Below, in pieces: positions 28,021 through 60,369 of a DNA stretch of 64,000 bases (position 1 is the stretch's first letter; every line of letters begins with the position of its first letter). Made by a program: the position numbers and the translations under genes. Below the pieces are notes generated by a model that saw nothing but the letters and a program-made list of their open reading frames with translations, was not told where the DNA came from and ran no database searches. This DNA comes from an uncultured Chloroflexia bacterium (GTDB taxonomy: Bacteria > Chloroflexota > Anaerolineae > Anaerolineales > E44-bin32). The stretch covers positions 1,397,990 through 1,461,989 of the forward strand of contig CAWAND010000010.1 of the NCBI GenBank assembly GCA_963783335.1, given 5' to 3'.

Positions 28021-28028
28021 GGAGACCC

Positions 28029-30384: not shown

Positions 30385-30403
30385 ACGGACGGATGAACCG
30401 CCA

Positions 30404-30435: not shown

Positions 30436-30453
30436 TCTCCCCTTGGGGCAATC

Positions 30454-33990: not shown

Positions 33991-33998
33991 ATCTGAAA

Positions 33999-35267: not shown

Positions 35268-35283
35268 GAGACGTGCCCAACCC

Positions 35284-36259: not shown

Positions 36260-37721
36260 ATGATCGACCTCACCATTGACAAAGCACGACGCGAGCATGC
36301 CATCCAGCGGGCGAAAGAGCGCGGCATTCGCGTTCCTACGTTCGCTCAGATGAAAGACCCCTCGCTGGTGCCAGACGACATCAAGGAACAGCTCGGAAGT
36401 ATTGGGCTTTGGGATGTCGACCCGCGCAATCTCTTTCGCATCACCTGGAAGAACGAACCGGTGGAGAAAGGCGGTGGCTACGGCGGCGTCAACTACATGG
36501 AGCTTCCAACCAGCCTGACCGGCGTGGAAGCCAGGATCATTGCCCTGGTTGGAAAGTGGTTCCCAACCGGCGCTCATAAGGTCGGGGCGGCCTTCGGCTG
36601 CCTGGTCCCCAGACTGGTCACTGGCCAGTTCGATCCGACCACCCAGAAGGCCGTCTGGCCCTCGACAGGCAACTACTGCCGGGGCGGCGCCTACGACTCG
36701 GCCCTCCTGGCGACGGAGTTGATCGCCATCCTTCCCGAGGGGATGAGCAAGGAGCGCTTCGAGTGGCTGGCCAACATCGCCGGGGAAACGATCAAGACAC
36801 CCGGGAGTGAGTTCGAACGTCAAGGAAATCTTTGATAAGTGCAAGGAACTGCGAGCCTCGGGCCAGGATCTGATGATATTCAATCAGTTCGAGGAATTCG
36901 GGAACTACCTATGGCACTATGAAGTGACAGGCCATGCCATGCAGGATGTCTTGGAGCGCGAGCTGGGAGGCAAGGGCAACTACCGGGGTGTGGTCCTTAC
37001 GACGGGCTCGGCCGGGACCATCGCATGCGGAGACTATCTGAAGCAGGTCTTTCCGACCAGCAAGGTCGCCGCTGGGGAAGCCTGGCAGTGCCCGACTCTG
37101 CTTGAGAATGGCTTCGGCGCACATCGCATTGAGGGAATCGGGGACAAGCACGTGCCCTGGATCCACAATGTTAAGAACACCGACCTGATCGTCGACATCG
37201 ACGATGCCACCGTGGTCAATCTGGCCCGCCTATTCAATGAGCCAGTTGGGCGTGCCTATCTGGCAGGGGAAGGCGTGACCGAAGATTTGGTTTCACAACT
37301 CGGGCTGCTGGGTTTCTCCGGTATTGCCAATCTGACCATGGCGATCAAGTTCGCCAAGTATTATGAGCTGGGTCCCGATGACGTCGTGCTGACGGTTCTG
37401 ACGGACTCGATGGATCTCTACCAAAGTCGGTTGAAGGAAATGCACGCCGAGATCGGCGAGTTCAAGGAACGCGATGCAGCCGCGGTTCATGGCCAGTATC
37501 TGGCCGGAATTACCACCGACCACATGCAAGAACTGCGCTACCCAGACCGTAGGCGGGTGCACAACCTCAAGTACTACACATGGGTTGAACAGCAAAGTCG
37601 AACTTTCGAAGAGATCACCGATCAGTGGTACACACCGGACTACTGGAAGGGTTTCCAGGGGCAGGTGGACGCGATCGACGAACTCATCGAAGCCTTCAAT
37701 GCTGACGTTGAGGCCGCCTGA
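36260..37721 (+). pseudogene. Cysteine-synthase-like fold-type-II PLP enzyme (long form), split by a frameshift at 36808-36814
   Basis: N-part MIDLTIDKARREH..GKWFPTGAHKVGAAFG (PLP Lys)..TPGSEFERQGNL*. The +1 frame continues SNVKEIFDKCKEL..LTTGSAGTIA..HRIEGIGDKH... Coding strand is GGG AGT GAG TTC GAA. Removing one T gives GSE SNVKEIF. Confidence 0.75.
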
Positions 37722-40921: not shown

Positions 40922-41068
40922 GGACGTCAGTTGCTTCCTCTAAGGGCAGCCTCCGGGCTGCTCTTTGGATTCTGTCAGCCATCGCTCAGGCGACTCTCCT
41001 TTCGGAAGTCCTATAATGTGAGAGCCCGCCATTACCGATTTCAACCTGCCCGGGCAGAGGAGAGGCGC

Positions 41069-42493
41069 ATGGGAAACAAAGTGATCAAAGGGGGGACCCT
41101 GATCACCGCTGAGGAGACGTTCAGCGCGGACATTCTGATAACCGACGAGCGGATCACCGCAATCGCCGAGCAGTTCGACGGTGTGGAGGCGGAAGTGATC
41201 GACGCCACAGACAAGCTCGTGCTGCCCGGCGGCATCGATCCGCATACCCATTTCAATCTTCCCATGTTCGACACGGTGTCATCTGATGACCACTACACCG
41301 GACACAAGGCAGCCGCCTTTGGCGGAACCACCACCGCTCTCGACTTTGTGCCTCAGCTTGACGAGGGAAGCTTGCGAGCTGGCGTCGATGAATGGCACGA
41401 GCGGGCGGACAGCCGGGCGGCCATCGATTTTGGATTCCACGCCAACATCACCCAACTCGATAAGGCTGTGTTGGATGAAATCCCTTCGCTGGTTGATCAG
41501 GGCATCACAACCCTGAAGGTGTTCACGGCCTACAATGGCCGTCTCAGACTCCAGGACGGCGAGATCTTCCAGGTGATGCGAAAAGGTGCCGAGCATGGGA
41601 TGCTGACCATGCTGCACGCAGAAAACGGGGACGTGATCGACGTGCTTGTGCGTGAGGCACTTGCCGCCGGCCACACATCGGCAGAGTTCCATGCGCGCAC
41701 CCGGCCCGCCTGGGGAGCCGTAGAGGCATTCCTGCGGGCGGTTGCCCTGGCGGCTCAAGCTGAATCCCCCCTGTATGTGGTGCACATGAACACGGCTGGG
41801 GAGGTCGATCAATTGGCCTATGCGAGGGCAAAGGGCTTGCCGGTGATGGGTGAGACATGCCCCCAGTACCTCTTTTTCAGCGACGATCTGCTGGCGCGTC
41901 CGGACGGCGCCAATTGGGTCTGTTCACCGCCGCTTCGGACTCCCGAAGATCAACGCGGCCTGTGGCAGGGCCTTAGCCACGACGTCATACAGACGGTGGG
42001 CACCGACCACTGTCCCTTCTTCTCGGATGGCTCCCGGCCGATCGAATACGAAGGCAAGCCGGTTGCCATCCCCGGAAAGGAACTCGGCGCCGGTGATTTC
42101 ACCAAGATCCCCAACGGCTTGCCAGGGGTAGGGGACCGACTCCCGATTCTGTGGTCCTACGGCGTGGGCCAGGGACGCCTGACACCCAACCAGTTCGTGG
42201 CACTGACAAGCACGAATCCGGCCAAGATCTTCGGCCTGTATCCCCGCAAGGGCACGCTGGTGCCGGGCGCGGACGCCGATATTGCCATCTGGGATCCTGA
42301 AGAGCGGCTGACCTACGGAGTGGCCCACGCCAAACATCGCACAGACTACAACTTGTACGAAGGCTGGGAACTTAAGGGGTTCCCGGAGAAGGTCTTTCTG
42401 CGTGGGCAGATGATTGTCGATGGAGATCGCTGGCTAGGCAAGGCTGGGATGGGCCGCTTTCAACATCGGCTTCCGGGCGCTGCCGTCCTCTAG
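41069..42493 (+). CDS. hyuA: D-hydantoinase / dihydropyrimidinase-type cyclic amidohydrolase
   Basis: 474 aa from ATG 41069 (AGAGGAGAGG upstream). GGIDPHTHF, carbamylated-Lys block GITTLKVFTAY, LHAENGD, YVVHMN, ETCPQYL, SPPLR, GTDHCPF. Confidence 0.88.
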   Translation: MGNKVIKGGTLITAEETFSADILITDERITAIAEQFDGVEAEVIDATDKLVLPGGIDPHTHFNLPMFDTVSSDDHYTGHKAAAFGGTTTALDFVPQLDEGSLRAGVDEWHERADSRAAIDFGFHANITQLDKAVLDEIPSLVDQGITTLKVFTAYNGRLRLQDGEIFQVMRKGAEHGMLTMLHAENGDVIDVLVREALAAGHTSAEFHARTRPAWGAVEAFLRAVALAAQAESPLYVVHMNTAGEVDQLAYARAKGLPVMGETCPQYLFFSDDLLARPDGANWVCSPPLRTPEDQRGLWQGLSHDVIQTVGTDHCPFFSDGSRPIEYEGKPVAIPGKELGAGDFTKIPNGLPGVGDRLPILWSYGVGQGRLTPNQFVALTSTNPAKIFGLYPRKGTLVPGADADIAIWDPEERLTYGVAHAKHRTDYNLYEGWELKGFPEKVFLRGQMIVDGDRWLGKAGMGRFQHRLPGAAVL

Positions 42494-42520
42494 TTGCGTG
42501 CCTGCGGGGTTGGGCTGGGA

Positions 42521-42549
42521 TTGTTGACGACAAGCCGGCATGCTAGAAT
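42521..42549 (+). promoter_or_regulatory. Strong extended -10 promoter (TGcTAGAAT) upstream of ssnA
   Basis: TAGAAT 42544-42549 preceded by TGC. -35 candidates are TTGTTG (17-nt spacer) and TTGACG (14-nt spacer). Leaves a leader of about 330 nt before ATG 42887. Confidence 0.55.
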
Positions 42550-42886
42550 GGCGCGAGGCGAGGATTCTTGCCTCCCTCCTGCCCCAGCGGCGTGCTTGAA
42601 GGTCTTTGGCCAAAGGTTGAATTCGCCCTCCGGCCCGGCGCTGGTGTTCACCACGCATCAACGCGTGCTTGGGACGAGAACGAGCACGCCACGAGGCCCG
42701 AATTGTTGAAAGTGTACGGTCTGGCACAACGACCATTGGCGGGGGAACAATGACACCCCTTGCCTTTGTCTATCGTTGGCAGCCACCCATTCAAAAGCCC
42801 AACCAGTACCTTGATCCTTTGGCCGAGACGAGACCTTTTGGACGGAGGCTTCGCCTTGGCGAAAGACGCACCGTACCGAGGAGTCG

Positions 42887-44245
42887 ATGATGCTCATCAC
42901 CAACGCCCATTTGATCACCTGGGATCAACCCAATCAAATCCTCGAAGACCATGCCCTACTTGTGAAAAGTGGCACAATCGACGCCTTGGGTCCCACCGCA
43001 GAAATGGTCCAAGCGAATCCTGATGAGGAGACTCTGGACGCGGGTGGACAGTGGTTGATGCCCGGCAATATCTGTGCCCACACGCACTTTTATGGGGCCT
43101 TCGCCCGTGGGATGGCCATACCCGGCCGTCCGCCGCGTGACTTCCCGGACGTGCTTCGTAAGCTCTGGTGGCCGCTGGACAAGTCATTGGACAGCGAAGA
43201 TGTGCGCTACTCGGCGCTGGTATGTCTGGTGGATGCCATTCGCCACGGCACCACGACCCTGATCGATCATCATGCCTCCCCCAACGCCATCGATGGCTCG
43301 CTCGACACGATCGCGGATGCCGTCGATCGTTCCGGTTTGCGGGCCGTCCTGTGTTACGAGGTCACCGATCGCGATGGCGAGGCCAAATCCGCTGCCGGAC
43401 GAGACGAAAATGTGCGCTTCATTGAGCGCTGCGCCGATGGTCCCGTTGCCGGAGGGCGCGTGGCGGCGGCTTTCGGTCTGCACGCTAGCCTGACTTTATC
43501 GGACGGGACATTGGATGCCTGTCGAAAGGTCGCCCCCGCCGGCTCCGCTTTTCACATCCACATTGCCGAGCACGAGGCCGATGAATATGACAGCCTGCGG
43601 AAGTCGGGACTGCGCATCGTTGACCGGCTGCTTGAGCACGGCATTCTTGACGAACGATCGATTGTGGCGCACGCTATTCACGTCGATGGCCGTGAAATGG
43701 AATTGTTGGCAGAGTCCGGATCCTGGGTGACCCACCAACCGCGCTCCAACATGAACAATGGCGTCGGCGTGGCGGATGTTGACTCGCTTCTGCGCATGGG
43801 CGTGCGCGTCTGCTTGGGCAACGATGGGTTTTCTAACGCCATGTGGGAGGAGTGGAAGACAGCCTACTTGCTGCACAAAGTCTGGCACCGAGATCCGCGC
43901 CGAATGCCGGCCGACAAGCTGGCGGAGATGGCTGTGGTCAACAACGCTGCTTTGGCCGAAGGCTTCTTCCCCGGGGCACCGCTTGGGACCATCCGCCCCG
44001 GCGCCAGGGCTGACCTGATTCTGGTGGACTACCATCCAACGACACCTGTCCATGAAGGCAATCTCCCATGGCATATTGTGTTTGGCTTCCACGAATCGAT
44101 GGTGACCGCCACCATGGTTGATGGCCGACTTCTGATGCGGAACCGCGAGCTGCTGACCCTGGACGAGGCCGAGATCACGGCCAAGGCACGCGAGCGTGTC
44201 CCAGCGGTTTGGGAACGCTACAAGGAGAACGTACCGTCCGACTGA
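42887..44245 (+). CDS. ssnA: SsnA-type amidohydrolase (putative selenium-associated aminohydrolase)
   Basis: 452 aa. MLITNAHLITWD..LMPGNICAHTHFYGAFARGM..DFPDVLRKLWWPLD..HGTTTLIDHHASPN..FHIHIAEH..AHAIH matches the SsnA pattern as I know it. Confidence 0.8.
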   Translation: MMLITNAHLITWDQPNQILEDHALLVKSGTIDALGPTAEMVQANPDEETLDAGGQWLMPGNICAHTHFYGAFARGMAIPGRPPRDFPDVLRKLWWPLDKSLDSEDVRYSALVCLVDAIRHGTTTLIDHHASPNAIDGSLDTIADAVDRSGLRAVLCYEVTDRDGEAKSAAGRDENVRFIERCADGPVAGGRVAAAFGLHASLTLSDGTLDACRKVAPAGSAFHIHIAEHEADEYDSLRKSGLRIVDRLLEHGILDERSIVAHAIHVDGREMELLAESGSWVTHQPRSNMNNGVGVADVDSLLRMGVRVCLGNDGFSNAMWEEWKTAYLLHKVWHRDPRRMPADKLAEMAVVNNAALAEGFFPGAPLGTIRPGARADLILVDYHPTTPVHEGNLPWHIVFGFHESMVTATMVDGRLLMRNRELLTLDEAEITAKARERVPAVWERYKENVPSD

Positions 44246-44271
44246 TCCGTCGGGCGAGATCTGGAGGCTGA

Positions 44272-44940
44272 ATGAGTGAAGATCGTTTGATTCTGACCCT
44301 GGCAATCCTAGGAGGCACCGGGCAGTCGGGGCCCGCGCTGGCAAGTCGCTGGGCCAAGGCCGGCTACCAGGTGTTGATCGGATCGCGACAGGCAGAAAAA
44401 GCTGAAGGCGTGGCGGCTGAACTCAACCAAGAACTTGGGCTGGAAACCATTCGGGGATTGGAGAACGCAAATGCGGCACGCCAGGCCGACATCGCCGTGC
44501 TCACCGTGGAATACACGGCCCATGATGCCGCGCTGGAGAGCCTGAAAGACAGTCTGCAAGGCAAGATTCTGGTGGATACGACGGCCCGGGTTGATTTTCG
44601 CGATGCCCAGCCGCCAGGTCCACCGTCTGCGGCGCGCACAGCCCAGGAAATCTTGGGGGATGGCGTGCGCGTGGTGGCGGGGTTCCAAACCGCGCCGGCG
44701 TTCGTTTTGAAGAAGAATCCCGATCAAAGGGTCGATGTAGACGTGTTGATCTGCGCCGACGACGAAGCCGCGGCCGAAGAAGTCATCAAACTGGCTGAGG
44801 GGGCCGGGATGAACGGCTACTACGCGGGCGGCCTGGACAACGCGGTGGTTGTCGAGGGGCTGACGGCCGTGATCATCCGTATGAACAAGCACTACAAGTC
44901 CCTGCGCGGATCGATCAAGGTGGTTGGACTGAAGAAGTGA
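44272..44940 (+). CDS. fno: NADPH-dependent F420 reductase
   Basis: LAILGGTGQSGPALASRWAKAGYQVLIGSR Rossmann start and NpdG/Fno-length (222 aa). Starts 26 nt after the ssnA stop. Confidence 0.8.
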   Translation: MSEDRLILTLAILGGTGQSGPALASRWAKAGYQVLIGSRQAEKAEGVAAELNQELGLETIRGLENANAARQADIAVLTVEYTAHDAALESLKDSLQGKILVDTTARVDFRDAQPPGPPSAARTAQEILGDGVRVVAGFQTAPAFVLKKNPDQRVDVDVLICADDEAAAEEVIKLAEGAGMNGYYAGGLDNAVVVEGLTAVIIRMNKHYKSLRGSIKVVGLKK

Positions 44941-45719
44941 CGTCCCCACATCAACTCACACTCACGGCTCTGCCTGACGTGCCGCTGGTGCAGCCGGGGG
45001 ATGACTTGGCGACCCTGGTACAAACGTCGCTGGAGGCTGGCGGCATTTCCCTCCGTTCCGGTGATGTCCTCGTGGTCGCCCAAAAAGTGGTTTCTAAGGC
45101 CGAGGGGCGGCTGGTGTGCCTCAACGATGTCCATCCTTCTTCGCGAGCGGTGGAGCTGGGGAGCGAGATCGGCAAGGATCCACGCCTGGTGGAAGTGATC
45201 CTTGGGGAAAGCTCCGAGATCGTCAGGTCCCGGCCCGGACTTCTGGTGGTTGAGCATCGCTTGGGTTTCGTCAGCGCCAATGCCGGAGTGGACCATTCCA
45301 ATGTGGCTGCCGAACCCGGCCGGGAGTCGGAGCCGTGGGTCCTGCTGCTGCCCGTGGATCCAGATGCCTCGGCCCGGCGCCTCGGAAAAGCGCTCGAAGA
45401 AAGCACAGGCACCGAGATCGCCGTCCTGATCATCGATTCGCATGGGCGCGCTTGGCGGATGGGAACGGTGGGGGTGGCGATAGGTGTCTACCACTTTCCC
45501 GCGCTGTTGGACCTGAGGGGCCACCCGGACCTCTTTGGTGAGCCGCTCAAGATCACCGAGGTGGGCCTGGCGGATGAGATTGCTGCGGCTGCTTCGGCGC
45601 TGATGGGGCAGGCCGACGAGGGGCAGCCGTTCGTTCATGTGCGAGGTCTCCCCTATCCTCTGAGAGACGGCTCTCTGGCCGAACTCCTGCGGCCCAAGTC
45701 ACAAGATCTGTTCCGATAG
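44937..45719 (+). CDS. cofE: Coenzyme F420-0:L-glutamate ligase
   Basis: GTGA overlap with fno. GDVLVVAQKVVSKAEGR..GFVSANAGVDHSNV..IIDSHGRAWR. Confidence 0.85.
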   Translation: MTSPHQLTLTALPDVPLVQPGDDLATLVQTSLEAGGISLRSGDVLVVAQKVVSKAEGRLVCLNDVHPSSRAVELGSEIGKDPRLVEVILGESSEIVRSRPGLLVVEHRLGFVSANAGVDHSNVAAEPGRESEPWVLLLPVDPDASARRLGKALEESTGTEIAVLIIDSHGRAWRMGTVGVAIGVYHFPALLDLRGHPDLFGEPLKITEVGLADEIAAAASALMGQADEGQPFVHVRGLPYPLRDGSLAELLRPKSQDLFR

Positions 45720-45856
45720 GGGGAGACAAAGGGGTGATTAAGGTCGCGGCGGCAATCCGTTAGAATAGGAGATGCCGGTGCCCATGAGGGCCGGCACCAT
45801 TGTGGACGGGCAACCACCCACCTTGAGCGTACGTTGGTTTTGGAGGTTCTCGCTGT

Positions 45857-46255
45857 ATGGATATTCCAGACTCCGTTCAGGATCTGCTGTCGTTTGACAC
45901 CAAGGCGTTCGCTGTGTTGGCGACAGTCATGCCCGACGGACGTCCGCAGGCGACACCGGTTTGGTTTGATGTCAAGCAGGGTGATTTCAGGGTTAACACG
46001 GCTCGTGGCCGGGTCAAAGACCTGAACATGCGTAAACGCGGGGCCGTGGCCCTGACTGTTCTCGACCCCGATGATCCTTACCGATACCTTCAGGTTCGGG
46101 GCGAAGTCGTGGCACAATCCGAGCAGGATGCGAAGGCTCATCTTGACCAGCTGGCCCTGAAATACCATGGAGTCGAGCGCTACCCGGGCTCGACCGAAGG
46201 ACAAACCCGGGTCATCTACACCATCAAGGCGAACTCGTTCTTCACCAACAAGTGA
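45857..46255 (+). CDS. PPOX-class (FDOR) probable F420-dependent oxidoreductase
   Basis: 132 aa split-barrel. AVLATVMPDGRPQATPVWFDVKQGDFRVNTARGRVKDLNMRKRGAVALTVLDPDDPYRYLQVRGEV. Confidence 0.75.
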   Translation: MDIPDSVQDLLSFDTKAFAVLATVMPDGRPQATPVWFDVKQGDFRVNTARGRVKDLNMRKRGAVALTVLDPDDPYRYLQVRGEVVAQSEQDAKAHLDQLALKYHGVERYPGSTEGQTRVIYTIKANSFFTNK

Positions 46256-46866
46256 CCGAAACACAGAACGCATACCAGGAGCTCGTCGAAACCCGGCGCT
46301 CCATCCGCAAGTTCACCGGCCAACCGGTACCCCGGGCGGCCCTGCAGCGACTCCTGGAAGCCGCATGTATGGCCCCGTCGGCCCACAACCGGCAGCCGTG
46401 GCGTTTCGTCGTGCTGCAGGATTATGACCTCCGCCAGCAGCTGATTTCGGAAATGTCAGAACCATTTCGAGCCGATCTTGCCAAAGATGGCATGCCGCAA
46501 GACGAGATCGAACGGGCTGTGGAACGTGGACGGGATCGAATGTTGGGCGCGGCTGCAGTGGTCCTACTCTTCCTCACAATGGAAGGGATGGATAGCCATG
46601 TGGACAGCGTCAGACAAGCTGCCGAGCACACCATGGCCGTCCAGAGTGTATCGCTGGCGGCTGGTCAGCTGCTTTTGGCGGCCCACGCCGCCGGGCTTGG
46701 TGCATGCTGGGTGTGCTCGCCATTGTTTACACCGACGATTGTGCGGCGTGTCTTGGGGCTCCCGGCTTCCTGGGAGGCGCAGGGCATGATCGCGTTGGGC
46801 TATCCGGATGAAGAGGGGCGGGATCGCGACCGCAAAGCGCTCCGTGAGGTCGTATTGTGGCGCTGA
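46252..46866 (+). CDS. Nitroreductase-fold protein resembling the FbiB C-terminal (dehydro-F420-0 reductase) domain
   Basis: [28 protein letters not shown]. Overlaps both neighbours and sits between cofE and cofD. Confidence 0.7.
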
Positions 46867-47810
46867 AGGTAACAGCCCTGGCCGGGGGTGTGGGAGGGGC
46901 CAAGCTGTTGGATGGCCTGGCGGCTGTGCTTCCGCCCGGACACCTGACGGCTGTGGTCAACACGGGGGATGATTTCGACCACCTGGGGCTCCGCATCTGC
47001 CCCGACCTGGATACGGTCTTGTATACGCTGGCCGGGATCGCCAATCCCAAGACCGGGTGGGGGCGAGTCAACGAAAGCTGGAACTTCATGGCCAGCGTCA
47101 GGGACTACGGCGGCGCCGACTGGTTTCAATTGGGGGACAAGGACGTGGCCCTGCACGTCCTCAGGACTCAGGCTCTGCGCCAGGGGACGCCGTTGAGCCG
47201 CTTCACGCAGCGCATGTCGCAGGCCTTGGGTGTGACCGTCCCAATCCTGCCGATGAGTGATGATCCGGTGCCGACCGTTGTTGAAACCGGCGAAGGCGAC
47301 CTCCCATTTCAGACCTATTTTGTGGCTCGCGGCTGCGAACCCGAAGTGAAAGGCTTTCGCTTTGAAGGCGCTTCCAGGGCAAGACCTGCGCCCGGTGTAT
47401 TGGAATCGCTGTTGCAGGCCGACCTGGTTGTACTGTGCCCTTCCAACCCGTGGGTAAGTCTGGACCCCATCCTGGCCGTCCCTGGTGTGCGCGAGGCCGT
47501 TGCCTCACGGCCCGTCGTTGGCGTTTCTCCCATTGTGGGGGGGAAGGCGCTCAAAGGGCCCGCCGCAAAGATGTTCCAGGAGCTCGGGTTGAAAGCTGAA
47601 GCAGGGGCCGTCGCCGAGCATTTCGAAGACTTGCTGGATGGGTTTGTGATTGACAATCAAGACAGGGATCAGGCCGACTCTGTACGAGATATGGGAATTC
47701 AGACGCTCGTGACGGCCACCGTGATGTTCGACGTTGCGGCACGCGCATCGCTGGCCGAAGACGTGCTTGGCCTGGGAAGAACCCTGACGAGAATGGAGAC
47801 AATTGCGTGA
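46857..47810 (+). CDS. cofD: 2-phospho-L-lactate (or EPPG) transferase
   Basis: GTG start. [54 protein letters not shown]. Confidence 0.88.
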
Positions 47811-48442
47811 CAATTTGGGCCATTGTGCCTGTCAAACCGCTGCGCCGCTCCAAGTCCCGGCTTTCCGGAGTGCTCTCGGTAGAAGAGCGGGCCCTCCTCA
47901 GCAAGGAGCTTCTGACCCACACCTTGGATGTGCTGCGAGAGGTGCCAGACGTCGAACACACGCTGGTGATCAGCCGGGATTCGATGGCGCTCTCCGTGGC
48001 TCGCGACTTCGGTGCACGGACCGTCCAGGAAAACGGAACCCCCGAACTCAACCGGGCCCTGATCAGGGCTACCCTGGTGGCGCGGGGCTATGGCGTATCG
48101 CGTGTGCTCATCCTGCCAGCGGACCTTCCGCTCCTTTCGCGGGCTGACGTAGAGCGCTTGCTCTCCCTCGCTCATGACCCTCCGGTGGTCGTCGTCGCCC
48201 CAGATCGTCATGGCACTGGGACGAACGCTCTGCTGTCGGCTCCGCCTGGTTTGATAGAATATGACTTCGGACCGAATAGCTTCTCCAGACACGTTGCTCG
48301 GGCCAAAGCGTCTGGAGCCAGGCTGGAAGTTTGCGAACTGCCATCGCTCGCACTTGATGTGGATCTACCTGAGGACCTAGAAATCCTCAGATCTGAGCAA
48401 GGACAGCCGATCAAAGCCGCCGAGGAGATCCTAGGAACATGA
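47807..48442 (+). CDS. cofC: Phospholactate/PEP guanylyltransferase
   Basis: [40 protein letters not shown]. Confidence 0.85.
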
Positions 48443-49437
48443 AGCGAGTAGCACTCTATCTTCAAGACGCACACGACCTGCGCGATGGATTGGACTACGT
48501 ACGCTACGCGGAAGAGAAGGGGTTTGAGGCCGTCTGGCAGGCCGAATCCCGCCTGGTCCGGGACGCCATCGTCCCGATGGCAGCCTATGCGGCTGTCACC
48601 GAGAAGATCAAAGTCGGCTCGGGCGTGATCAACAATTGGACCCGCAATATTGGCCTCCTCGCGTCTACCTTCCTGACCCTCGACGATTTGGCGCCAAATC
48701 GTGTGATTTGTGGCATCGGAGCTTGGTGGGATCCGCTGGCAAAGAACGTCGGCATCGACCGAAGGAAGCCTCTGACAGCCATGAGGGAGACGGTTGAAGT
48801 GCTGCGCAGGCTGCTCAGTTTGGAGCGCGTGACTTTTCATGGCGAGTTTCACCATGTGGAGGGCATTGAGCTGGACGTAGTCCACGGGCGTCGTGAACCG
48901 CGCAACGTGCCAATCTACATCGGGGCGACCGGTCCAAAGATGATGGAGTTGGCTGGCGAAATCGCCGACGGCGTGGTGATGAACTACTGCGTTCCCCCTG
49001 CCTACAACGATCCTGCCATGGAGCAGCTCGAGGCAGGTGCAGCCAAGGCGGGCCGTACGCTGGAAAGCATCGATCGACCTCAGCTGGTGGTGGCCTCGGT
49101 AGACAATGATCGGGCGAAGGCGCTCGATACGAGCCGGGAGCTGCTCACCCAGTACCTCGCCCAGCAGCCGCACATTGCCAAGGCCAGCGGCGTATCGCAG
49201 GACGTGGTCGACAAGATACAGGCAATCCTTGGCTGGCCGGCGACCCATGAGCAGATCCAGCAAGCCAAGCACCTCGTACCAGACGACCTGGTTGAGAGGA
49301 TCACGGCCTCGGGAACGCCTGAGGATGCCCGACGCAAGGTTCAGGAGTACATTGATCATGGCTGCACTTGCCCGATCCTGTACCCTGTTGGTGGCAGCGT
49401 TGAGCTTCTGATCGATACTTTCAGCCCGTCTGTTTGA
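48439..49437 (+). CDS. LLM-class (luciferase-like) probable F420-dependent oxidoreductase
   Basis: 332 aa TIM-barrel LLM pattern ([38 protein letters not shown]..). ATGA overlap with cofC. Confidence 0.75.
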
Positions 49438-49489
49438 CCGGGGTGGCATGCATCCATCGCCACCCTCAACATGAATTCGAGGGTGAAAG

Positions 49490-50014
49490 ATGGCTAGACA
49501 ACCTGAGCCGCACGGTGAACACGGCGGGTCCGTGAAGCAGCCGAATTCCCGCAACTGCTTCGCCTGCGGTCTTGAGAATCCATTTGGGCTGGGGCTGACG
49601 TTTTACGAAATCGGCCCCGACCGTCTTGAGTCCCACTACACTGTTCCCGAGCATTTTGAGGGATACCCCGGCGTGGTCCACGGCGGCATCATCGCATCCA
49701 TGTTGGATGAGATGGTCAGCCGGGCGGCGATGATCGGCCAGCACAATCGTTTCATGATGACCGCTAAGCTGGAGATCCGCTACCGCAAGCCGGTCCCGAC
49801 CGGTGAGGAACTGCACTTGCAGGCCCAGCTGACGCGGCCAGCCGGCAGGGTGGCCACGGCCAATGCCCGGATCACGCTTCTTGATGGATCCGTGGCGGCC
49901 GAGGCGGAAGCCACCCTGGCGCCGATGCCCGGGGGTCCAAAAGATGAGTCCTTGCTCGACTCCTTGGGGTGGAGGTTGTATCCTGATAATCCGACCGAGG
50001 CATCGGAAGGCTGA
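49490..50014 (+). CDS. PaaI/hotdog-fold thioesterase
   Basis: NCFACGLENPFGLGL..PGVVHGGIIASMLDE. Confidence 0.75.
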   Translation: MARQPEPHGEHGGSVKQPNSRNCFACGLENPFGLGLTFYEIGPDRLESHYTVPEHFEGYPGVVHGGIIASMLDEMVSRAAMIGQHNRFMMTAKLEIRYRKPVPTGEELHLQAQLTRPAGRVATANARITLLDGSVAAEAEATLAPMPGGPKDESLLDSLGWRLYPDNPTEASEG

Positions 50015-50067
50015 GCCGCCCAGGACCTGCGGATTCGAAAGGCCTGCCTTGCGAGGCGGATAGAAGC

Positions 50068-51411
50068 ATGAACAAAACGTATGTCGTTGGGCATGTGAAT
50101 CCGGACACAGATGCGATCGCATCCGCTGTGGGGTATGCGTGGCTGTTGAACGCTACAAACGGGGATCAAGTGCTGGCGGCACGGGCGGGAAACATCAACC
50201 GTCAGACGGCCTGGGTTCTCGATCGCCTCGGTCTCGTTACGCCCGAGCTGCTGGCGGATGCATCCCCCAGGTTCGGTGACGTCGCCAGGCGGTTGGACAG
50301 CGTTCTTCCCAGCCAGCCGCTGAGGGAAGCCTGGGCCATCGCCGGTCGCACCGGTTTCGCCGCTCCCGTGGTCGATGCCGATGGCATGCCTTATGGGTTG
50401 ATCACCGCGTTCAGCCTGTTTCGTCATCTCAGCCAGCTGGTGGGGGAACGCCCAGAGCAGCCTCAACAAAGGCTGGCTGAAATCTTCAATGAACCCAGCG
50501 ATGCGGCCGCGGACAAGGGCGTCCCGAAATTCCAGGCAAGCTGGAGGATCAGGGATCTCCTGCCCCGGATCCTGCGCGAGGAGCGCAACGAATTCTGGGT
50601 CATCAATGAGAGCGGCGCGTACCAGGGAGTCTGCCGCCAGCGAGACCTGCTCAATCCCCCGCGCATGCGCATTATCCTGGTTGACCACAATGAAGCCAAG
50701 CAGTCAGTCCGGTCTCTGAACGAAGCCGAGTTAATCGAAGTCGTTGATCACCATCGCCTGGACAATCCGGCCACGCGCACGCCGATTCGATTCTGGATTG
50801 AGCCCGTGGGAAGCACAAGCACCCTGGTGGCGGAGCGTATTCAGGAATCGGGCCTCAGCGCGCCACCGCCGCAAGCCGGCCTGCTGTTGGCCGGGATGCT
50901 TTCCGACACCTTGATCCTGGCATCACCCACCACCACCGACCGCGATCGCCGGACCGCGGAGGTTTTGGCGCGTTGGGCCTTCGTCGGCGGGGGCCCTCTG
51001 GCAGGTGAGACGATTGACAGCTTCGGGCGAGAGCTCCTTCAAGCCGGGGCTGGCTTGGTATCACGTGATCCAGAGGCGGTCGTCAACGGCGACCTGAAGG
51101 TCTACGAGGAGGGTCGGCAGAAATTCGCCATCTCCCAGGTTGAAGTCACCGATCACCTGGAATTGGCTGATCACCTCGAAGGATTGCGGGGCGCCCTGGA
51201 AACGCTACGAAAGGAGCATGGCCTGGATTTCGCCATGCTGATGATCACCGATGTGGTCGGCGGCTCCAGCCGACTGGTCCTTCAATCGGCACCGCCGGCG
51301 TTGGACGAGCTTCCGTTTCCCCATCTCCCGGACGGCACGCTGGATGCCAAAGGCGTCGTCTCACGCAAGAAACAGCTGCTGCCGACCGTGCTGGCTTTGC
51401 TCGAGGGATAG
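50068..51411 (+). CDS. ppaC: CBS-domain-containing family II (DHH) inorganic pyrophosphatase-like protein
   Basis: VVGHVNPDTDAIASAVGYAWL, CBS insert, ILVDHNE, VVDHHRL, DHHA2-like C-terminus. Confidence 0.75.
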   Translation: MNKTYVVGHVNPDTDAIASAVGYAWLLNATNGDQVLAARAGNINRQTAWVLDRLGLVTPELLADASPRFGDVARRLDSVLPSQPLREAWAIAGRTGFAAPVVDADGMPYGLITAFSLFRHLSQLVGERPEQPQQRLAEIFNEPSDAAADKGVPKFQASWRIRDLLPRILREERNEFWVINESGAYQGVCRQRDLLNPPRMRIILVDHNEAKQSVRSLNEAELIEVVDHHRLDNPATRTPIRFWIEPVGSTSTLVAERIQESGLSAPPPQAGLLLAGMLSDTLILASPTTTDRDRRTAEVLARWAFVGGGPLAGETIDSFGRELLQAGAGLVSRDPEAVVNGDLKVYEEGRQKFAISQVEVTDHLELADHLEGLRGALETLRKEHGLDFAMLMITDVVGGSSRLVLQSAPPALDELPFPHLPDGTLDAKGVVSRKKQLLPTVLALLEG

Positions 51412-52239
51412 ATGAGCATCTACTCTCGCTTGGCGGCACTGGAAGCCCAAGGAAAAGAAGCCGTTCTGGTCACCGTGGTGGCGGCTCGCGGATCGGTTCC
51501 CCGGCATGAAGGAAGCAAGATGCTTGTCCTGCCCGACGGCTCGATCGAGGGCACGATTGGCGGCGGAGAGATGGAACATCGTGTCATCGAAGAGGCGCTG
51601 GCAGCGCTTAAGGATGACCGTCTACGAGTCCAAGAGTACACATTCCAAGACCCAGCACAGGGTGACGTCGGGGTTTGTGGAGGAGAAATCCAAGTGGTGA
51701 TCGAGCCGGTCAAACCCAGTCCAAGTCTGCTGGTGATCGGGGCGGGCCATGTCGGCAATGCGGCTGCCCACCTGGGAAAGTGGTTGGGATTCGAAGTGAC
51801 GGTTGTGGATGACCGACCTGAGTTCGCTGAATCCGACGAGGTGCCAGACGTCGATCGCGTGGTAGCCTGCCCAATGGAAGATATCACCGACTGCGTGGAT
51901 GTTCATTCCCAGACGTATGTGTTGATGACAACCCGAGGCGTCGATTTGGATGTTGAGAGCTTACCCAAGCTTCTGGCCACGCCGGCTGCCTACATTGGTG
52001 TGATCGGGTCCAGACGCCGATGGGAGACCACGGTCGCGCAGCTCAGGCAGGCCGGAATCTCCGAAGAACAGATTTCGCGTGTGACCTCGCCGATGGGATT
52101 AGAATTGAACGCTGAAACACCAGAAGAAATCGCCGTTAGCGTGCTTGGGCAGGTGATCATGCTGCGCCGAGGAGGATCAGGAGATCCGATGGCGCACAAG
52201 CCCGCCCAACGCCGCAGCAAGGGAGCCGAGTCAGAATGA
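51412..52239 (+). CDS. xdhC: XdhC/CoxI-family Mo-cofactor insertion/sulfuration accessory protein
   Basis: ATG directly abuts the ppaC stop. AVLVTVVAARGSVPRHEGSKMLV..GTIGGGEMEH..LLVIGAGHVG. Confidence 0.85.
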   Translation: MSIYSRLAALEAQGKEAVLVTVVAARGSVPRHEGSKMLVLPDGSIEGTIGGGEMEHRVIEEALAALKDDRLRVQEYTFQDPAQGDVGVCGGEIQVVIEPVKPSPSLLVIGAGHVGNAAAHLGKWLGFEVTVVDDRPEFAESDEVPDVDRVVACPMEDITDCVDVHSQTYVLMTTRGVDLDVESLPKLLATPAAYIGVIGSRRRWETTVAQLRQAGISEEQISRVTSPMGLELNAETPEEIAVSVLGQVIMLRRGGSGDPMAHKPAQRRSKGAESE

Positions 52240-53681
52240 ATCTGTGGGACCGCTACCTCACCCCAACCAGCCTGGATGAGGCGATCCAGGCCCTTCACGA
52301 TAACCAGGGTAACGCCCGAATCGTTGCCGGCGCGACCGATTTGATTTTGGAGCTCGAACGCGGCCAGCGCCCGAACGTGACCACGTTGATTGACATCACC
52401 CGGATCCCGGGACTGGACATGATCCGGCAGGATGATGGCGTGGTCCACATGGGTCCGCTGGTGACACACAATCACTGTGCGACATCTTCCTTGATCGTTG
52501 ACCGAGCCTACGTACTTGCTCGAGCTTGTTGGGAAGTTGGGGCGCCCCAGATCCGCAACCGGGGTACCGTGGCTGGCAATCTGATCACTGCCTCTCCGGC
52601 CAACGACTCCATTCCAGCATTGATGGCCCTCGGCGCCCAGGTTCTCCTGCGTTCATATGAGGCTGAACGCCTCGTCCCCCTGGCAGACTTTTATGAAGGG
52701 GTGCGGAAGACCGTGATGCGGCCGGATGAGATGCTGGTGGACATTTCGTTCTCCCTGCCCGGCTCAAACTCCCGCAGCACCTTCCTCAAGCTCGGATTGC
52801 GTCGGGCGCAGGCCATCTCAATTGTCAATACCGCCGTTGTGCTCGAGATGAACGGTCAGATCGTTGATCGGGCGAGCATAACCCTGGGCTCTGTCGCCCC
52901 GACGATCGTAAATGCCGAAGCGGCTGAAGCCTCGCTCAGCGGCGTTTCGCTAACTCCGGAAACCATCGAACGGGCCGCCATAGCCGCCCAGTATGCTGCC
53001 CATCCGATTGACGACGTGCGCGGAAGCAGCGCCTATCGCGCGCAAATGGTCAAGACCATCGTCGGCCGTGCCCTTCGCAGCCTGGCAGCCGGAGACGAGC
53101 GTCAAGGCTACCCAGAACATCCGGTGACCCTGTGGGGTCCCGCCGAGTACCACTGGACCCGTGAGCTCGAAGCGGTTGAAGAGCATGATGCTCATCGGCC
53201 AATTCATACAACCATCAACGGCAAGCAGTATGTGTTCGACACTGGCCAGGGCAAGACGCTCCTGCGTCTCTTGCGTGAAGAAGGCGAGCTGATCGGCACC
53301 AAGGAAGGCTGCGCCGAGGGCGAATGTGGCGCATGCACCGTATTCTTGGACGGTATGGCGGTCATGGCATGCATGGTGCCCGCACCAAGGGCTCACGGGG
53401 CTGACATCATCACCGTTGAGGGTCTGGCCCACGGCGATCAGCTTCATCCCATTCAGCAGGCGTTTCTGGATCAAGGAGCGGTACAGTGCGGCTACTGTAC
53501 GCCGGGCTTTTTGATGTCGGGAGCGAAGCTCTTGGAGGAGCGCCAGCAACCGACTCGATGGGATATTCAGCAGTCGCTGACTGGAAATCTATGCCGTTGC
53601 ACCGGCTACTACAAGATTGTTGACGCCGTCGAACAGGCAGCCAGGGAAAGCGACCGATCGCTCCGATCGGCAGCTGACTAA
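52236..53681 (+). CDS. Xanthine-dehydrogenase-type hydroxylase, fused FAD-binding (CoxM-like) and 2x[2Fe-2S] (CoxS-like) subunit
   Basis: N-half RIVAGATDLILELERG..AGNLITASPANDS. C-half TINGKQY..GCAEGECGACTV..QCGYCTPGF..NLCRCTGY. Confidence 0.9.
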   Translation: MNLWDRYLTPTSLDEAIQALHDNQGNARIVAGATDLILELERGQRPNVTTLIDITRIPGLDMIRQDDGVVHMGPLVTHNHCATSSLIVDRAYVLARACWEVGAPQIRNRGTVAGNLITASPANDSIPALMALGAQVLLRSYEAERLVPLADFYEGVRKTVMRPDEMLVDISFSLPGSNSRSTFLKLGLRRAQAISIVNTAVVLEMNGQIVDRASITLGSVAPTIVNAEAAEASLSGVSLTPETIERAAIAAQYAAHPIDDVRGSSAYRAQMVKTIVGRALRSLAAGDERQGYPEHPVTLWGPAEYHWTRELEAVEEHDAHRPIHTTINGKQYVFDTGQGKTLLRLLREEGELIGTKEGCAEGECGACTVFLDGMAVMACMVPAPRAHGADIITVEGLAHGDQLHPIQQAFLDQGAVQCGYCTPGFLMSGAKLLEERQQPTRWDIQQSLTGNLCRCTGYYKIVDAVEQAARESDRSLRSAAD

Positions 53682-53736
53682 TCTGAGCGGAGCCAGCTTT
53701 TCGGCCAGGGCCGGAAACGGCCCGAAGGGACAGCTC

Positions 53737-54129
53737 ATGGGACGCGAATCATATCGCTACCGACAGCTTGACAAACAGCGAGAAGAACGCCAGCGGATGA
53801 ATCCGATCTGGCGCGGCGTGGGCTGCCTCATGATGGTGGCTTTCGCCGTGGCAGGATATGCGTTTTCGGGCTGGTTCCTGGCGGCTAACGCTCGCAACGG
53901 CTGGGTTTACCTCCCGCCGGCGGCTGTTCAGCCTCCATTCTTGCCTTCATGGCTGCCGTACGGATTGACGCCCCGGCTTGTGGTCGGGTTCCTGTTCCTG
54001 CTCTTGGGATTCGGCTTGGTGAGCTTCGTGTATGCCATCATGTTCCCGATCAAACCCAGTGAAACGGATGCCCCAACGCCCAAGCGCAGGAAGCAGAAGC
54101 GCGGGGTCTACCGGAGCAGAGGGCGCTAG
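53737..54129 (+). CDS. Small two-TM membrane protein with basic termini
   Basis: AAGGGA 6 nt before ATG 53737 (inside tracked ORF 53617..54129). GVGCLMMVAFAVAGYAF and LVVGFLFLLLGFGLVSFVYAIMF helices. Confidence 0.5.
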   Translation: MGRESYRYRQLDKQREERQRMNPIWRGVGCLMMVAFAVAGYAFSGWFLAANARNGWVYLPPAAVQPPFLPSWLPYGLTPRLVVGFLFLLLGFGLVSFVYAIMFPIKPSETDAPTPKRRKQKRGVYRSRGR

Positions 54130-54135
54130 GCCGAT

Positions 54136-55884
54136 ATGGATCGGACAGTTCCTCGCACTGGCTCAGAGGAAATCGAGCTTTACATCCGAACCTACTATTC
54201 CCTGCTGCGATCAACAGCCGATGTAGAGATTCGCACCTTGGAAGAAGTCCACGCCAGCATGGGTTCGCCACTCCATCCGGGAGCGCGCGCTGCGCTGCCG
54301 GATTTCTCGGCCTTTATCTACAGCTCGCTTCGCCTTCCACAGTGTATGGCCAAGGTAGAAAGGGTGATCCTCGGCCAGAGCCAGGACGTGTTTCGTTTGA
54401 AGGGTATCGGAGACGTTGAGGCGTGGACGCCGGCGGCGGCGAGAGCACGGCGCCGGTTGAGCTACTTCAACGGTGAGGACACGCTCGCCTGTTACATCGC
54501 TAGCCGTTCCGACATCGACGATATCATCCCGCTGCTGACTTCCTTTCAGATTGAGTGGAACAAGCTCCACCGTCTGATGGCTGGTGGGCAGGTGCGCAGC
54601 TATCTGGCCCAAGCCAAGGACGGAGATGATGATGTGGCCGTGTTCGCCCAAGGCCTGGGAGTGGACGCGGAAGAGATGGAACGCCTGCGAAGGGTGTGGG
54701 GAGAGGCTTTCTGGCCTCTCATGCGGGCGATTGCGGAGGGCGGGAAACGTCTGAAGGTGCGTCTCCTTTCGAGTTCTTTGAACGAATACCGGCGGGCCAC
54801 ACAGCTGTGGTGGGAACGAGTCGAGGAGTTGGAGCCGACATTGCTCAACCGGCCGGTCTACTTCGTCTCCAGCAACACGCACAGTCTGGCCAACTTGGTC
54901 TCCGGCTTTGCGCTGCGCCATGAAGATGAATTGATCCGCTTTGTGGACGACACGGGCCAGCCCGACTTGCAGGCGGAATGGCAGGGGATCGAGGCCGAGC
55001 AGGTGCGTTCCAGTCGCGAGAACTTCCTCTACTACGCGTTCAAACGATATATGGACTCGGATGACCCGTTTGGCCTGGTGGCCGGTCTGGCTGATGACGA
55101 AAGAAAGTCTGGTATCCTTCGCGTCCCCAGCGAGCACAGCTTTGATCTAGAAGCCCAGGTCTTCAACTTGTCTGAGATTCAACCCGGTTGGGTAGATCCG
55201 AGATTGGCAGATGAAGAGCTGGATCTGCTCAAACACAGCGACGCCCTGGTTGTGAACATTGACTACCCGCTTGGGATGGCGGCCTACCTCGTATTGGCCT
55301 ATGTCGCCACAAGGGTAGGCGAGCTGCGAGGCGTGTACGTCTTGGGGAAAGCAGCCACTCTCAACGCCATCGTGGGGGATGTCATGATCCCTCAGGTTAT
55401 CTACGATGAGCAGTCACTGAATACCTATCTGTTCGAGAATTGCTTCAAGGCTTCCGATGTCGATCAGGAGCTGATGTATGGGACCGTCCTCGACAATCAG
55501 AAGGCCGTCAGTGTGCGAGGGACCTTCTTGCAGACACCCAGGTACATGGACGTCTTCTATCGCGAAGGCTACACCGACATCGAAATGGAAGCCGGTCCCT
55601 ATCTTTCGGCGATTTACGAACTTGCTCGACCCAAACGCTACCCCGACAATGAGATTGTCAATCTGCACGAGCTTCCCTTCGAGCTGGGCATCCTGCACTA
55701 CGCATCAGATACCCCGTTGAGCAAAGGGCGCAATCTCGGTGCCGGGACGCTTTCCTACTATGGAATGGATCCAACCTATGCCACCAGCCTGGCCGTCCTG
55801 AGGCGCATTTTTCGATCTGAAATCAGGCGTCTTGGGCCCCGCCGGGCTCAGATGGGCGAGGCGGCGGCATCAACACATCAATGA
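54136..55884 (+). CDS. Two-domain protein: unrecognised ~380-aa N-domain + AMP-nucleosidase-like nucleoside phosphorylase-I catalytic domain
   Basis: C-domain has VVNIDYPLGMAAY..VLGKAATLNAIVGDVMIPQVIYDE..TDIEMEAGPY. This parallels the Amn/PNP-UDP pattern (NIGVGPSNA..GHCGGL..GDYVL..VEMES). Confidence 0.65.
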   Translation: MDRTVPRTGSEEIELYIRTYYSLLRSTADVEIRTLEEVHASMGSPLHPGARAALPDFSAFIYSSLRLPQCMAKVERVILGQSQDVFRLKGIGDVEAWTPAAARARRRLSYFNGEDTLACYIASRSDIDDIIPLLTSFQIEWNKLHRLMAGGQVRSYLAQAKDGDDDVAVFAQGLGVDAEEMERLRRVWGEAFWPLMRAIAEGGKRLKVRLLSSSLNEYRRATQLWWERVEELEPTLLNRPVYFVSSNTHSLANLVSGFALRHEDELIRFVDDTGQPDLQAEWQGIEAEQVRSSRENFLYYAFKRYMDSDDPFGLVAGLADDERKSGILRVPSEHSFDLEAQVFNLSEIQPGWVDPRLADEELDLLKHSDALVVNIDYPLGMAAYLVLAYVATRVGELRGVYVLGKAATLNAIVGDVMIPQVIYDEQSLNTYLFENCFKASDVDQELMYGTVLDNQKAVSVRGTFLQTPRYMDVFYREGYTDIEMEAGPYLSAIYELARPKRYPDNEIVNLHELPFELGILHYASDTPLSKGRNLGAGTLSYYGMDPTYATSLAVLRRIFRSEIRRLGPRRAQMGEAAASTHQ

Positions 55885-55899
55885 AATGAGGTCAGACGC

Positions 55900-60281: not shown

Positions 60282-60315
60282 GCAAGAACATGGGTGGGCG
60301 ACAGAAACGGGTTCA

Positions 60316-60344
60316 TTGCTGGGCCGTTGGGGGTCAGGTATACT
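60316..60344 (+). promoter_or_regulatory. Candidate promoter TTGCTG-N17-TATACT upstream of the receiver gene
   Basis: -35 at 60316-60321, -10 at 60339-60344, 26 nt before ATG 60370. Confidence 0.4.
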
Positions 60345-60369
60345 CCGGTCTCTGGCATGAGTTGGTGCC

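Follow-up and report, generated by a model that had tools for sequence, protein, structure and literature searches.

A coenzyme F420 module with a Mer-like oxidoreductase in the place of YgfK in a predicted urate cluster of Anaerolineae

The 64-kb stretch of contig CAWAND010000010.1 analysed here (the window, taken at its full length), from an uncultured bacterium of the order Anaerolineales, carries genes for the synthesis and use of coenzyme F420 in the middle of a predicted purine-catabolic cluster. The block begins with ssnA and ends with the gene of a luciferase-family oxidoreductase, hereafter LLM. Gene identities were assigned by profile searches (Pfam, NCBIfam) and judged against the curated NCBIfam cut-offs, which are given in brackets below.

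42540-42548, + strand: promoter-like motif TGCTAGAAT of the extended -10 type, lying about 340 nt upstream of ssnA
42887-44245, + strand: ssnA, predicted amidohydrolase opening the reduced 2,8-dioxopurine ring; NF005540, 500.8 bits (cut-off 444)
44272-44940, + strand: fno/npdG, NADPH:F420 oxidoreductase, predicted to recharge F420H2; TIGR01915, 168.1 bits (cut-off 149.8)
44937-45719, + strand: cofE, single-domain F420-0:gamma-glutamyl ligase; TIGR01916, 267.3 bits (cut-off 180.65), and PF01996
45857-46255, + strand: PPOX-class, FDOR-B, Rv1155-type F420-dependent oxidoreductase (PPOX); TIGR03618, 99.2 bits (cut-off 79)
46252-46866, + strand: stand-alone FbiB-C-terminal-like nitroreductase (NTR), candidate dehydro-F420-0 reductase; TIGR03553, 167.9 bits, below the cut-off of 249.55
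46857-47810, + strand: cofD, 2-phospho-L-lactate (or EPPG) transferase; TIGR01819, 317.7 bits (cut-off 257.45)
47807-48442, + strand: cofC, guanylyltransferase; TIGR03552, 167.8 bits (cut-off 105)
48439-49437, + strand: LLM, Mer-like luciferase-family F420-dependent oxidoreductase, proposed 2,8-dioxopurine reductase; PF00296, 230 bits

SsnA also passes TIGR03314 (470.9 bits, cut-off 455.5) and is 33% identical to E. coli SsnA. CofC, CofD and CofE all score above their equivalog cut-offs, as does Fno; the whole F420 tail pathway, together with Fno, is embedded in the urate cluster. NTR aligns to positions 252-448 of the full-length FbiB model NF009810, the next-best family being BluB at 98 bits. 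A preliminary description, made from the letters of this DNA alone, had listed the same genes; the open reading frame (ORF) table returns the same coordinates and the profile searches agree. The spacings that it gave are also those of the ORF table: 26 nt between ssnA and fno, a single gap of more than 60 nt in the block (45720-45856, 137 nt), and downstream gaps of at most 55 nt, namely 52 nt from LLM to a thioesterase gene, 53 nt from there to an inorganic pyrophosphatase (PPase) gene and 0 nt from the latter to xdhC. The five overlaps of 4-10 nt that it described hold for the longest ORFs. Two of them hinge on the choice of start codon: later starts of cofE and cofC are called on identical metagenome contigs, and these overlaps then become gaps of 38 and 59 nt.

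Related loci were collected in two scans. LLM was compared with one genome per species, and the best 80 of at least 563 matches were used; SsnA was compared with metagenome contigs, giving 80 loci. The window proteins were placed on all 160 loci by tblastn. They are all from a single class, the 80 best LLM matches being assigned to Anaerolineae or unclassified Chloroflexota; cultured Pelolinea submarina MO-CFX1 (L056) is among them, as are metagenome-assembled genomes (MAGs) assigned to Anaerolinea thermophila, Bellilinea and Levilinea. An LLM protein identical to that of the window is found on 19 contigs.

The order ssnA-fno-cofE-(PPOX-NTR)-cofD-cofC-LLM is almost invariant across the 160 loci. 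The same gene order in about 150 independent loci is more than chance. Directly downstream of ssnA lies fno in 58 of the 63 ssnA-centred loci. Presence and absence of LLM in this set were counted in the 30 loci with at least 6.5 kb of downstream flank. In these, fno, cofE, cofC and LLM are found in 30/30, cofD in 28, NTR in 26 and PPOX in 22. Seen from the other end, ssnA lies upstream of LLM in 55/59 LLM-centred loci, and fno, cofE and cofC do so in 57-58/59. The spacers between the core genes are short, with medians of 12-118 nt as measured from alignment edges. Both flanks vary. Upstream of ssnA there may be hyuA, an extra FAD/Mo hydroxylase pair, or a divergent M20 dipeptidase; downstream of LLM there may be the thioesterase, ygfM/xdhD-like genes, PPase, or unrelated genes. 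A tblastn search with E. coli YgfK, whose absence from the window had already been noted, gave no match in the window and none in the 160 loci (0/160). In the window and in nearly all related loci examined, the F420 genes and LLM thus lie in the predicted urate cluster at the place where gut bacteria have YgfK.

Of all proteins of the block, LLM is conserved best, with 80-88% identity in the best 80 of at least 563 species-level genomes; in the same loci SsnA is 55-75% and Fno 38-65% identical. Among proteins in the PDB, Mer ranks first (E 6e-43), followed by Fgd and Adf, all of them F420-dependent, and FMN-dependent members come later. F420 dependence is common to the nine best PDB relatives, and the first 16 NCBIfam matches are to F420-dependent LLM families, though the protein stays below both Mer equivalog cut-offs (NF002619, 183.5 vs 276 bits; TIGR03555, 181.3 vs 348.7 bits). 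With its Bac_luciferase TIM-barrel and its F420-dependent kin, LLM can be counted among the luciferase-like hydride transferases (LLHT). Its fold is best regarded as fixed by its similarity to Mer, and LLM presumably binds and uses F420, a reading to which the co-operonic F420 genes lend indirect support. Among 1.8 billion cluster representatives searched, the relatives next in line were 43-52% identical. Of those with a readable gene context (48-52% identical), one (L168) is encoded beside cofC and a DUF6909 gene, the gene of another (L169) overlaps that of a TRZ/ATZ-family amidohydrolase, and a third (L171) lies between hyuA-like and ssnA-like genes.

LLM, not PPOX, is the constant partner of SsnA. 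The preliminary description had treated PPOX and LLM as equal candidates for F420-dependent chemistry on purines, but only LLM is universal, PPOX being found in 66/160 loci. Among the LLM-centred loci, PPOX is present in 23/59 and NTR in 26/59. Where cofE and cofC are both present, PPOX and NTR occur together in 44 loci and are both lacking in 31; NTR stands alone in 13 and PPOX in 4. The two genes form an optional, overlapping cassette between cofE and cofD, gained and lost together. FbiB's C-terminal domain uses FMNH2 to reduce dehydro-F420-0, and for some bacteria a distinct 'CofX' enzyme is anticipated (Bashiri et al. 2019, PMC6450877). For this reason the cassette would more probably serve cofactor maturation than act as a purine reductase. 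PPOX and NTR may amount to a stand-alone dehydro-F420-0 reductase of the 'CofX' type, which would have a flavin-reducing partner of its own.

In E. coli and Clostridium, the products of the cluster with ssnA break urate down by a reductive route (Li et al. 2025, PMC12507026; Liu et al. 2025, 10.1101/2025.04.24.650524). According to these papers, XdhD-YgfM (or the clostridial XdhAC) strips the 6-oxo group of urate to give 2,8-dioxopurine, YgfK reduces the latter with NAD(P)H, and SsnA then hydrolyses the product; HyuA, YgeW/YqeA, YgeY and YgeX carry on to pyruvate, ammonia and ATP. Li et al. (PMC12507026) obtained product only when YgfK and SsnA were combined, and Liu et al. (10.1101/2025.04.24.650524) report that 2,8-dioxopurine is converted by YgfK alone.

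We consider it reasonably probable that the window carries an Anaerolineae variant of this 2,8-dioxopurine ('isoxanthine') urate cluster, in which the Mer-like LLM, using F420H2, replaces YgfK. CofC, CofD and CofE, with or without NTR and PPOX, would make F420 from the deazaflavin FO. Reducing equivalents would flow from NADPH through Fno to F420H2, and LLM would transfer a hydride from F420H2 onto 2,8-dioxopurine. SsnA would hydrolyse the dihydro product and so pull an otherwise unfavourable reduction, and HyuA, carbamoyltransferase and carbamate kinase would complete the pathway. The joint product of YgfK and SsnA, ureidomethyl-hydantoin, would imply that the hydride is added at C6, an imine-type reduction resembling that of Mer. 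We infer both the substrate of LLM and the production of F420 in these organisms. The preliminary description had suggested that F420H2 stands in for YgfK, and this idea has gained in weight: the ssnA-F420-LLM arrangement is near-universal in Anaerolineae and ygfK was seen in none of the 160 loci. Its further idea, that F420H2 would supply a low-potential reduction, misses the point. YgfK itself draws on NAD(P)H, and since F420 is tied to NADPH by Fno, the driving force would be similar. F420 would thus serve as another carrier of hydride and not as a donor of lower potential.

The hydroxylases of the cluster are less uniform than its core. In 56 related loci, a YgfM-like FAD protein is encoded downstream of LLM, followed by an XdhD-like protein of about 1000 aa, which is 36-40% identical to E. 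coli XdhD over the full length and shares the XdhD-specific insertion carrying Glu606. This residue of XdhD is implicated in substrate orientation (Li et al. 2025, PMC12507026). XdhD-like proteins occur in 38/60 and YgfM-like proteins in 37/60 relatives. The typical Anaerolineae order is ssnA-[fno cofE cofD cofC LLM]-(thioesterase)-ygfM-xdhD, compared with ygfK-ssnA-ygfM-xdhD in E. coli. In most relatives (for example L008, L009, L013 and L093) the ygfM/xdhD pair sits between the thioesterase and PPase genes. The window species and two of its close relatives (L088, L089) have only a spacer of 53 nt there, without ygfM/xdhD, and in Pelolinea submarina, which has no thioesterase, LLM is directly followed by PPase. 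The preliminary description had spoken of an xdh operon. Xanthine dehydrogenase (XDH) genes are indeed present, but they are of the XdhA/PucD-like type and not those of the XdhD/YgfM urate reductase. Compared with E. coli XdhA and XdhD, the molybdopterin subunit of the window reaches 29-31% identity, and it is without the Glu606 insertion. This architecture, with the window-type XDH only, recurs in nine other genomes, Pelolinea submarina included.

Several observations weigh against the replacement of YgfK by LLM. With E. coli XdhD as query, the only tblastn match in the window was one of 28% identity to its own Mo subunit, and the XdhD of a close relative gave no match to the source contig among the 120 matches listed (at least 77% identity). 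The XdhD/YgfM pair that would make 2,8-dioxopurine from urate is missing from the window species; its 2,8-dioxopurine might come from an XdhD encoded elsewhere in the genome, from the resident XDH if this has a broader specificity, or through cross-feeding. E. coli YgeY found no tblastn match in the 64-kb window, and for YgeX there was only a match of 42 bits, to a ThrC-like PLP enzyme. Because all loci come from one class, the synteny could be partly inherited rather than selected. The amidohydrolases beside LLM relatives of 48-50% identity score below the SsnA cut-off and are not taken as bona fide SsnA, so that the gene contexts of these distant relatives are only suggestive. As to the cofactor, no FO synthase (CofG plus CofH, or FbiC) is seen in the window and no conserved candidate for one lies within 10 kb of LLM in 80 genomes, so that a supply of F420 is only presumed. 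In the literature searched, nothing was found on F420 in Anaerolineae or on FO scavenging. Finally, what is said here of the Anaerolineae enzymes rests on comparison of sequences.

No radical-SAM FO-synthase-like ORF is found among the annotated long ORFs of the window, as the preliminary description had remarked. FO would then come from elsewhere in the genome or from the environment. A census of conserved genes without assignment around the 80 LLM loci yielded no radical-SAM pair. The one adjacent pair of fitting size was set aside as a candidate FO synthase because, by eye, it resembles GlcE/GlcF of glycolate oxidase. It comes after LLM in four genomes (at 12416-14854 in L063) and encodes a FAD-binding protein and a Cys-rich Fe-S protein; it might be linked to F420, for instance through lactate/2-PL supply, or to purine breakdown. 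A further, rather unlikely possibility is that F420 tail assembly and recharging are private to essentially one catabolic step, the reduction of 2,8-dioxopurine, with no FO made by the bacteria themselves but taken from neighbours such as methanogens, and with the optional cassette working as the 'CofX' system. If this were true, anaerobic purine breakdown by one of the commonest groups of digester and sediment bacteria would depend on cofactor cross-feeding.

The same loci bear on three other explanations. The genes fno-cofE-cofD-cofC-LLM could be a general F420 operon of Anaerolineae that stands beside ssnA by descent, with LLM acting on another substrate, for example a C1-pterin. The best family matches of LLM are indeed Mer models, shared ancestry within one class contributes to the synteny, a folD gene is present elsewhere in the window, and LLM is found apart from ssnA in a few genomes (L014, L082). 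However, the core stays linked while both flanks reshuffle, and ygfK is absent from 160/160 loci although SsnA needs a preceding reductase. LLM also falls short of both Mer equivalog cut-offs, its relatives of 48-50% identity again adjoin cyclic amidohydrolases, and folD is not near the block in related loci. We regard a general operon as unlikely. To a similar degree, it seems improbable that F420 or F420H2 is the redox partner of XdhD/YgfM or of XDH, with LLM or Fno as the coupling enzyme instead of a ring reductase. The physiological electron donor of the clostridial 2,8-dioxopurine dehydrogenase is unknown (Liu et al., 10.1101/2025.04.24.650524), ygfM-like and xdhD-like genes follow LLM in about 38/60 loci, and one locus (L014) keeps LLM with ygfM-xdhD while ssnA is absent from its flank. 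On the other hand, the window species and the Pelolinea clade keep ssnA-F420-LLM without XdhD/YgfM, and the linkage of LLM to ssnA (55/59; 30/30) is tighter than that to xdhD (38/60). YgfM-like proteins and FAD/Fe-S subunits already offer a nicotinamide-type entry, E. coli XdhD-YgfM using NADH (PMC12507026), and F420 enzymes of the LLM fold pass the hydride directly to their substrate (table of a 2021 F420 review).

The reductase might also be PPOX (45857-46255) rather than LLM. Its score above the cut-off of an F420-dependent family, and the ability of FDORs to act as reductases on the activated C=C and C=N bonds of heterocycles (same review table), would suit such a role. It is nevertheless absent from 36/59 LLM-centred loci that still have ssnA and no ygfK, among them cultured Pelolinea and Anaerolinea and Bellilinea MAGs, and its co-variation with NTR (44 loci with both, 31 with neither) points to a cofactor-maturation cassette. 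A purine-ring reductase of the PPOX type is therefore very improbable. None of these alternatives appears to fit the pattern of conservation as well as the replacement of YgfK by LLM.

From hyuA (40931) to yqeC-mocA (60281), all genes are co-directional. The exact 9-mer TGCTAGAAT recurs in 9/19 homologous hyuA-ssnA spacers, far above chance, including those of relatives at 69-71% SsnA identity. The promoter that had been proposed here is thus plausible, and TGCTAGAAT is probably a real promoter, with a leader of about 340 nt ahead of ssnA. A sigma-70 scan misses it because the spacing to the -35 element is only 14 nt. The sequence of the ssnA leader is conserved among close relatives only. A single transcript from 42544 to 60281 is plausible; a consensus scan of 42300-61000 for promoters and terminators stayed at chance level (14 terminator-like sites vs 14.0 expected). 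Other signals were considered and discarded. A second promoter in the gap between cofE and PPOX is not supported, the TAGAAT found there recurring in only 11/60 homologous spacers, and the 137-nt gap folds no better than shuffled sequences (z -0.25). As for a riboswitch or leader RNA, Rfam at the gathering threshold reports only a 6S RNA in the whole window, and no match with E up to 1 in 42400-46000. The 6S RNA (RF00013, 83.7 bits, E 5e-15) lies just 3' of aspS at 62800-62973 on the + strand.

The genes around the block were compared with the E. coli ygeW-xdhD cluster, whose proteins served as the tblastn query set for the window. They are the following.

27034-28989, + strand: YgeW/OTC-like carbamoyltransferase and carbamate kinase, the ATP-yielding end of the pathway; tblastn and NCBIfam
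40931-42493, + strand: hyuA-like hydantoinase/dihydropyrimidinase, for opening of the second ring in the reductive urate pathway; TIGR02033, 514.8 bits (cut-off 393)
49490-50014, + strand: PaaI-like hotdog-fold thioesterase; PF03061, TIGR00369
50068-51411, + strand: CBS-DHH family II inorganic pyrophosphatase (PPase); PF01368, PF02833, PF00571, NF011443
51412-52239, + strand: XdhC-like maturation factor; NF045664, TIGR02964; 37% identical to residues 1-264 of E. coli YqeB
52236-53681, + strand: fused FAD and 2Fe-2S subunit of xanthine-dehydrogenase type; TIGR02963, NF043083, NF043084
53737-54129, + strand: small predicted membrane protein in the xdh operon; no family match, position kept in relatives
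54136-55884, + strand: DUF6909 protein of 582 aa; PF21850, 729 bits
55900-58128, + strand: molybdopterin subunit, XdhA/PucD-like and not of XdhD type; TIGR03196, 585.7 bits, below its cut-off
57975-58943, + strand: yqeB, selenium-dependent Mo-cofactor maturation; TIGR03309, 315.8 bits (cut-off 220)
58944-60281, + strand: yqeC-mocA fusion (selenium cofactor protein and MoCo cytidylyltransferase); TIGR03172, 135.1 bits (cut-off 73)

Over 468 aa, the HyuA-like protein shares 39% identity with E. coli HyuA. For the carbamoyltransferase, identity to YgeW is 35% and the score is 189.5 bits against a YgeW equivalog cut-off of 500. Carbamate kinase is plainly encoded, though a frameshift divides its gene and E. 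coli YqeA matches in two frames. The window neighbourhood as a whole holds two carbamoyltransferases and one carbamate kinase. The carbamate kinase halves lie at 28017-28487 and 28498-28989, aspS is likewise split (60977-62353 and 62343-62780), and a cysK-like fragment at 36807-37721 is without its N-terminus. The state of these frameshifted and truncated genes suggests errors of a long-read MAG assembly and not true pseudogenes. An 8-oxoguanine deaminase (NF006055, 663 bits, cut-off 532), an adenine deaminase and a GntR-family regulator are encoded at 21953-25919 on the + strand, and a Bmp-type nucleoside-like ABC transporter at 29089-33990. The deaminases and the transporter are likely feeder steps of the purine cluster, and the GntR protein its candidate regulator. 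The ThrC-like PLP enzyme has 532 aa, with a long N-terminal extension (TIGR00260, 196 bits, cut-off 167), and might replace the missing YgeX. Its gene and that of a GT2 glycosyltransferase lie at 33669-36252 on the + strand, and both are kept upstream of hyuA-ssnA in several relatives.

Downstream of LLM, the thioesterase gene follows directly in 65 related loci; to our knowledge, neither the urate pathway as described nor F420 synthesis has a reaction that calls for such an enzyme. PPase, which is kept downstream of the block in relatives, may pull the PPi-releasing reactions of CofC and MocA. The XdhC-like factor is the counterpart of the N-terminal half of E. coli YqeB. The small predicted membrane protein is encoded between the FAD/Fe-S subunit and the DUF6909 and Mo subunit genes of an XDH operon of soluble type. 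The probable start of yqeB is near 58125, and on identical contigs the gene is called as 272 aa. In the fusion protein, encoded by the last gene of the co-directional block, the MocA part reaches 148.2 bits with TIGR03310, below the cut-off of 186. The selenium-type maturation genes yqeB, yqeC and mocA adjoin the hydroxylase genes directly; no selD is seen in the window. DUF6909 is widespread in Anaerolineae as an optional insert in the xdh operon. It has no PDB match by sequence. Its AF2 model (pLDDT 76.8, pTM 0.80) gave a Foldseek top 50 in the PDB consisting entirely of MTAN, AMP nucleosidase, PNP or UP structures (E 9e-4 to 1e-2, TM about 0.5 on the target), and the protein carries an IEMEAGP motif. 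A nucleoside phosphorylase/nucleosidase-like fold is thus predicted, and DUF6909 may free purine bases from nucleosides or nucleotides for the hydroxylase.

If LLM does replace YgfK, F420 would have a role in primary purine catabolism, and the anaerobic urate pathway would have a third, mechanistically distinct dearomatising solution after YgfK and UacX. F420 would thereby gain its first physiological role in a bacterial class that is very abundant. LLM relatives are encoded in at least 563 species-level genomes, and the best 80 all belong to Anaerolineae or unclassified Chloroflexota, with the block present wherever the flank suffices. For this reason, the trait could be of consequence for the turnover of nitrogen and purines in digesters, sediments and soils. 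The hypothesis can be put to the test, since the cluster is present in cultured Pelolinea submarina MO-CFX1. Moreover, the compact module of NADPH, Fno, F420 and LLM might interest engineers of uricolytic probiotics.

A link between F420 and this pathway has been proposed before. From a sequence-similarity network of SsnA, Li et al. (2025, PMC12507026) report a PF00296 'putative F420-dependent reductase' within 15 genes of ssnA in Chloroflexota, and their discussion mentions a putative reductase 'relying on coenzyme F420'. The preliminary description, whose author knew of no described F420-linked purine catabolism, has to be corrected in this respect. The core inference is therefore not new, although it was made as a bioinformatic remark without biochemistry. 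This is the only paper that we found linking F420 with urate degradation; in a 2021 review of F420, neither 'purine' nor 'Anaerolinea' occurs. The Chloroflexota variant of Li et al. is the same feature as that described here, and the window is an Anaerolineales example of it. What is added is the embedded fno-cofE-cofD-cofC set with its PPOX/NTR genes and the reciprocal conservation statistics, the finding that SsnA has its constant partner in LLM and not in PPOX, the optional cassette and the variable hydroxylases, the lack of an FO synthase nearby, and the lack of XdhD/YgfM in the window species.

Compared with the E. coli ygeW-xdhD cluster, the window shares SsnA, HyuA, a YgeW-like protein, carbamate kinase, YqeB, YqeC and MocA, and an XDH. 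It differs in having the F420 module and LLM instead of YgfK, in being without YgeY and YgeX, in the splitting of YqeB into two genes, and in the fusion of yqeC to mocA. In C. difficile, the PydA-like UacX is proposed to take the place of YgfK, and it appears that the ring-reduction step can be exchanged in evolution with SsnA and HyuA retained. UacX, presumably linked to ferredoxin, is an FMN enzyme that has the dihydroorotate/dihydropyrimidine dehydrogenase fold, whereas the candidate in the window is a TIM-barrel LLM that would use F420H2. No PF01180-type gene is seen among the window annotations, and no search with the UacX sequence itself was made. The mycobacterial FbiD/FbiA/FbiB/FbiC route is matched by orthologues of CofC, CofD and CofE and by an NTR homologous to FbiB's C-terminal domain; here, in contrast, CofE and NTR are separate genes, NTR and PPOX are optional, and the genes are embedded in a catabolic cluster. 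Mer (PDB 8QQ8, 1Z69, 1F07) is the closest solved homologue of LLM (E 6e-43, residues 19-325) and has the same fold. It transfers a hydride to a C=N-type centre of an N-heterocycle with F420, a cofactor presumably shared by LLM. Unlike Mer, LLM scores below the equivalog cut-offs, is bacterial, and is encoded in the context of ssnA.

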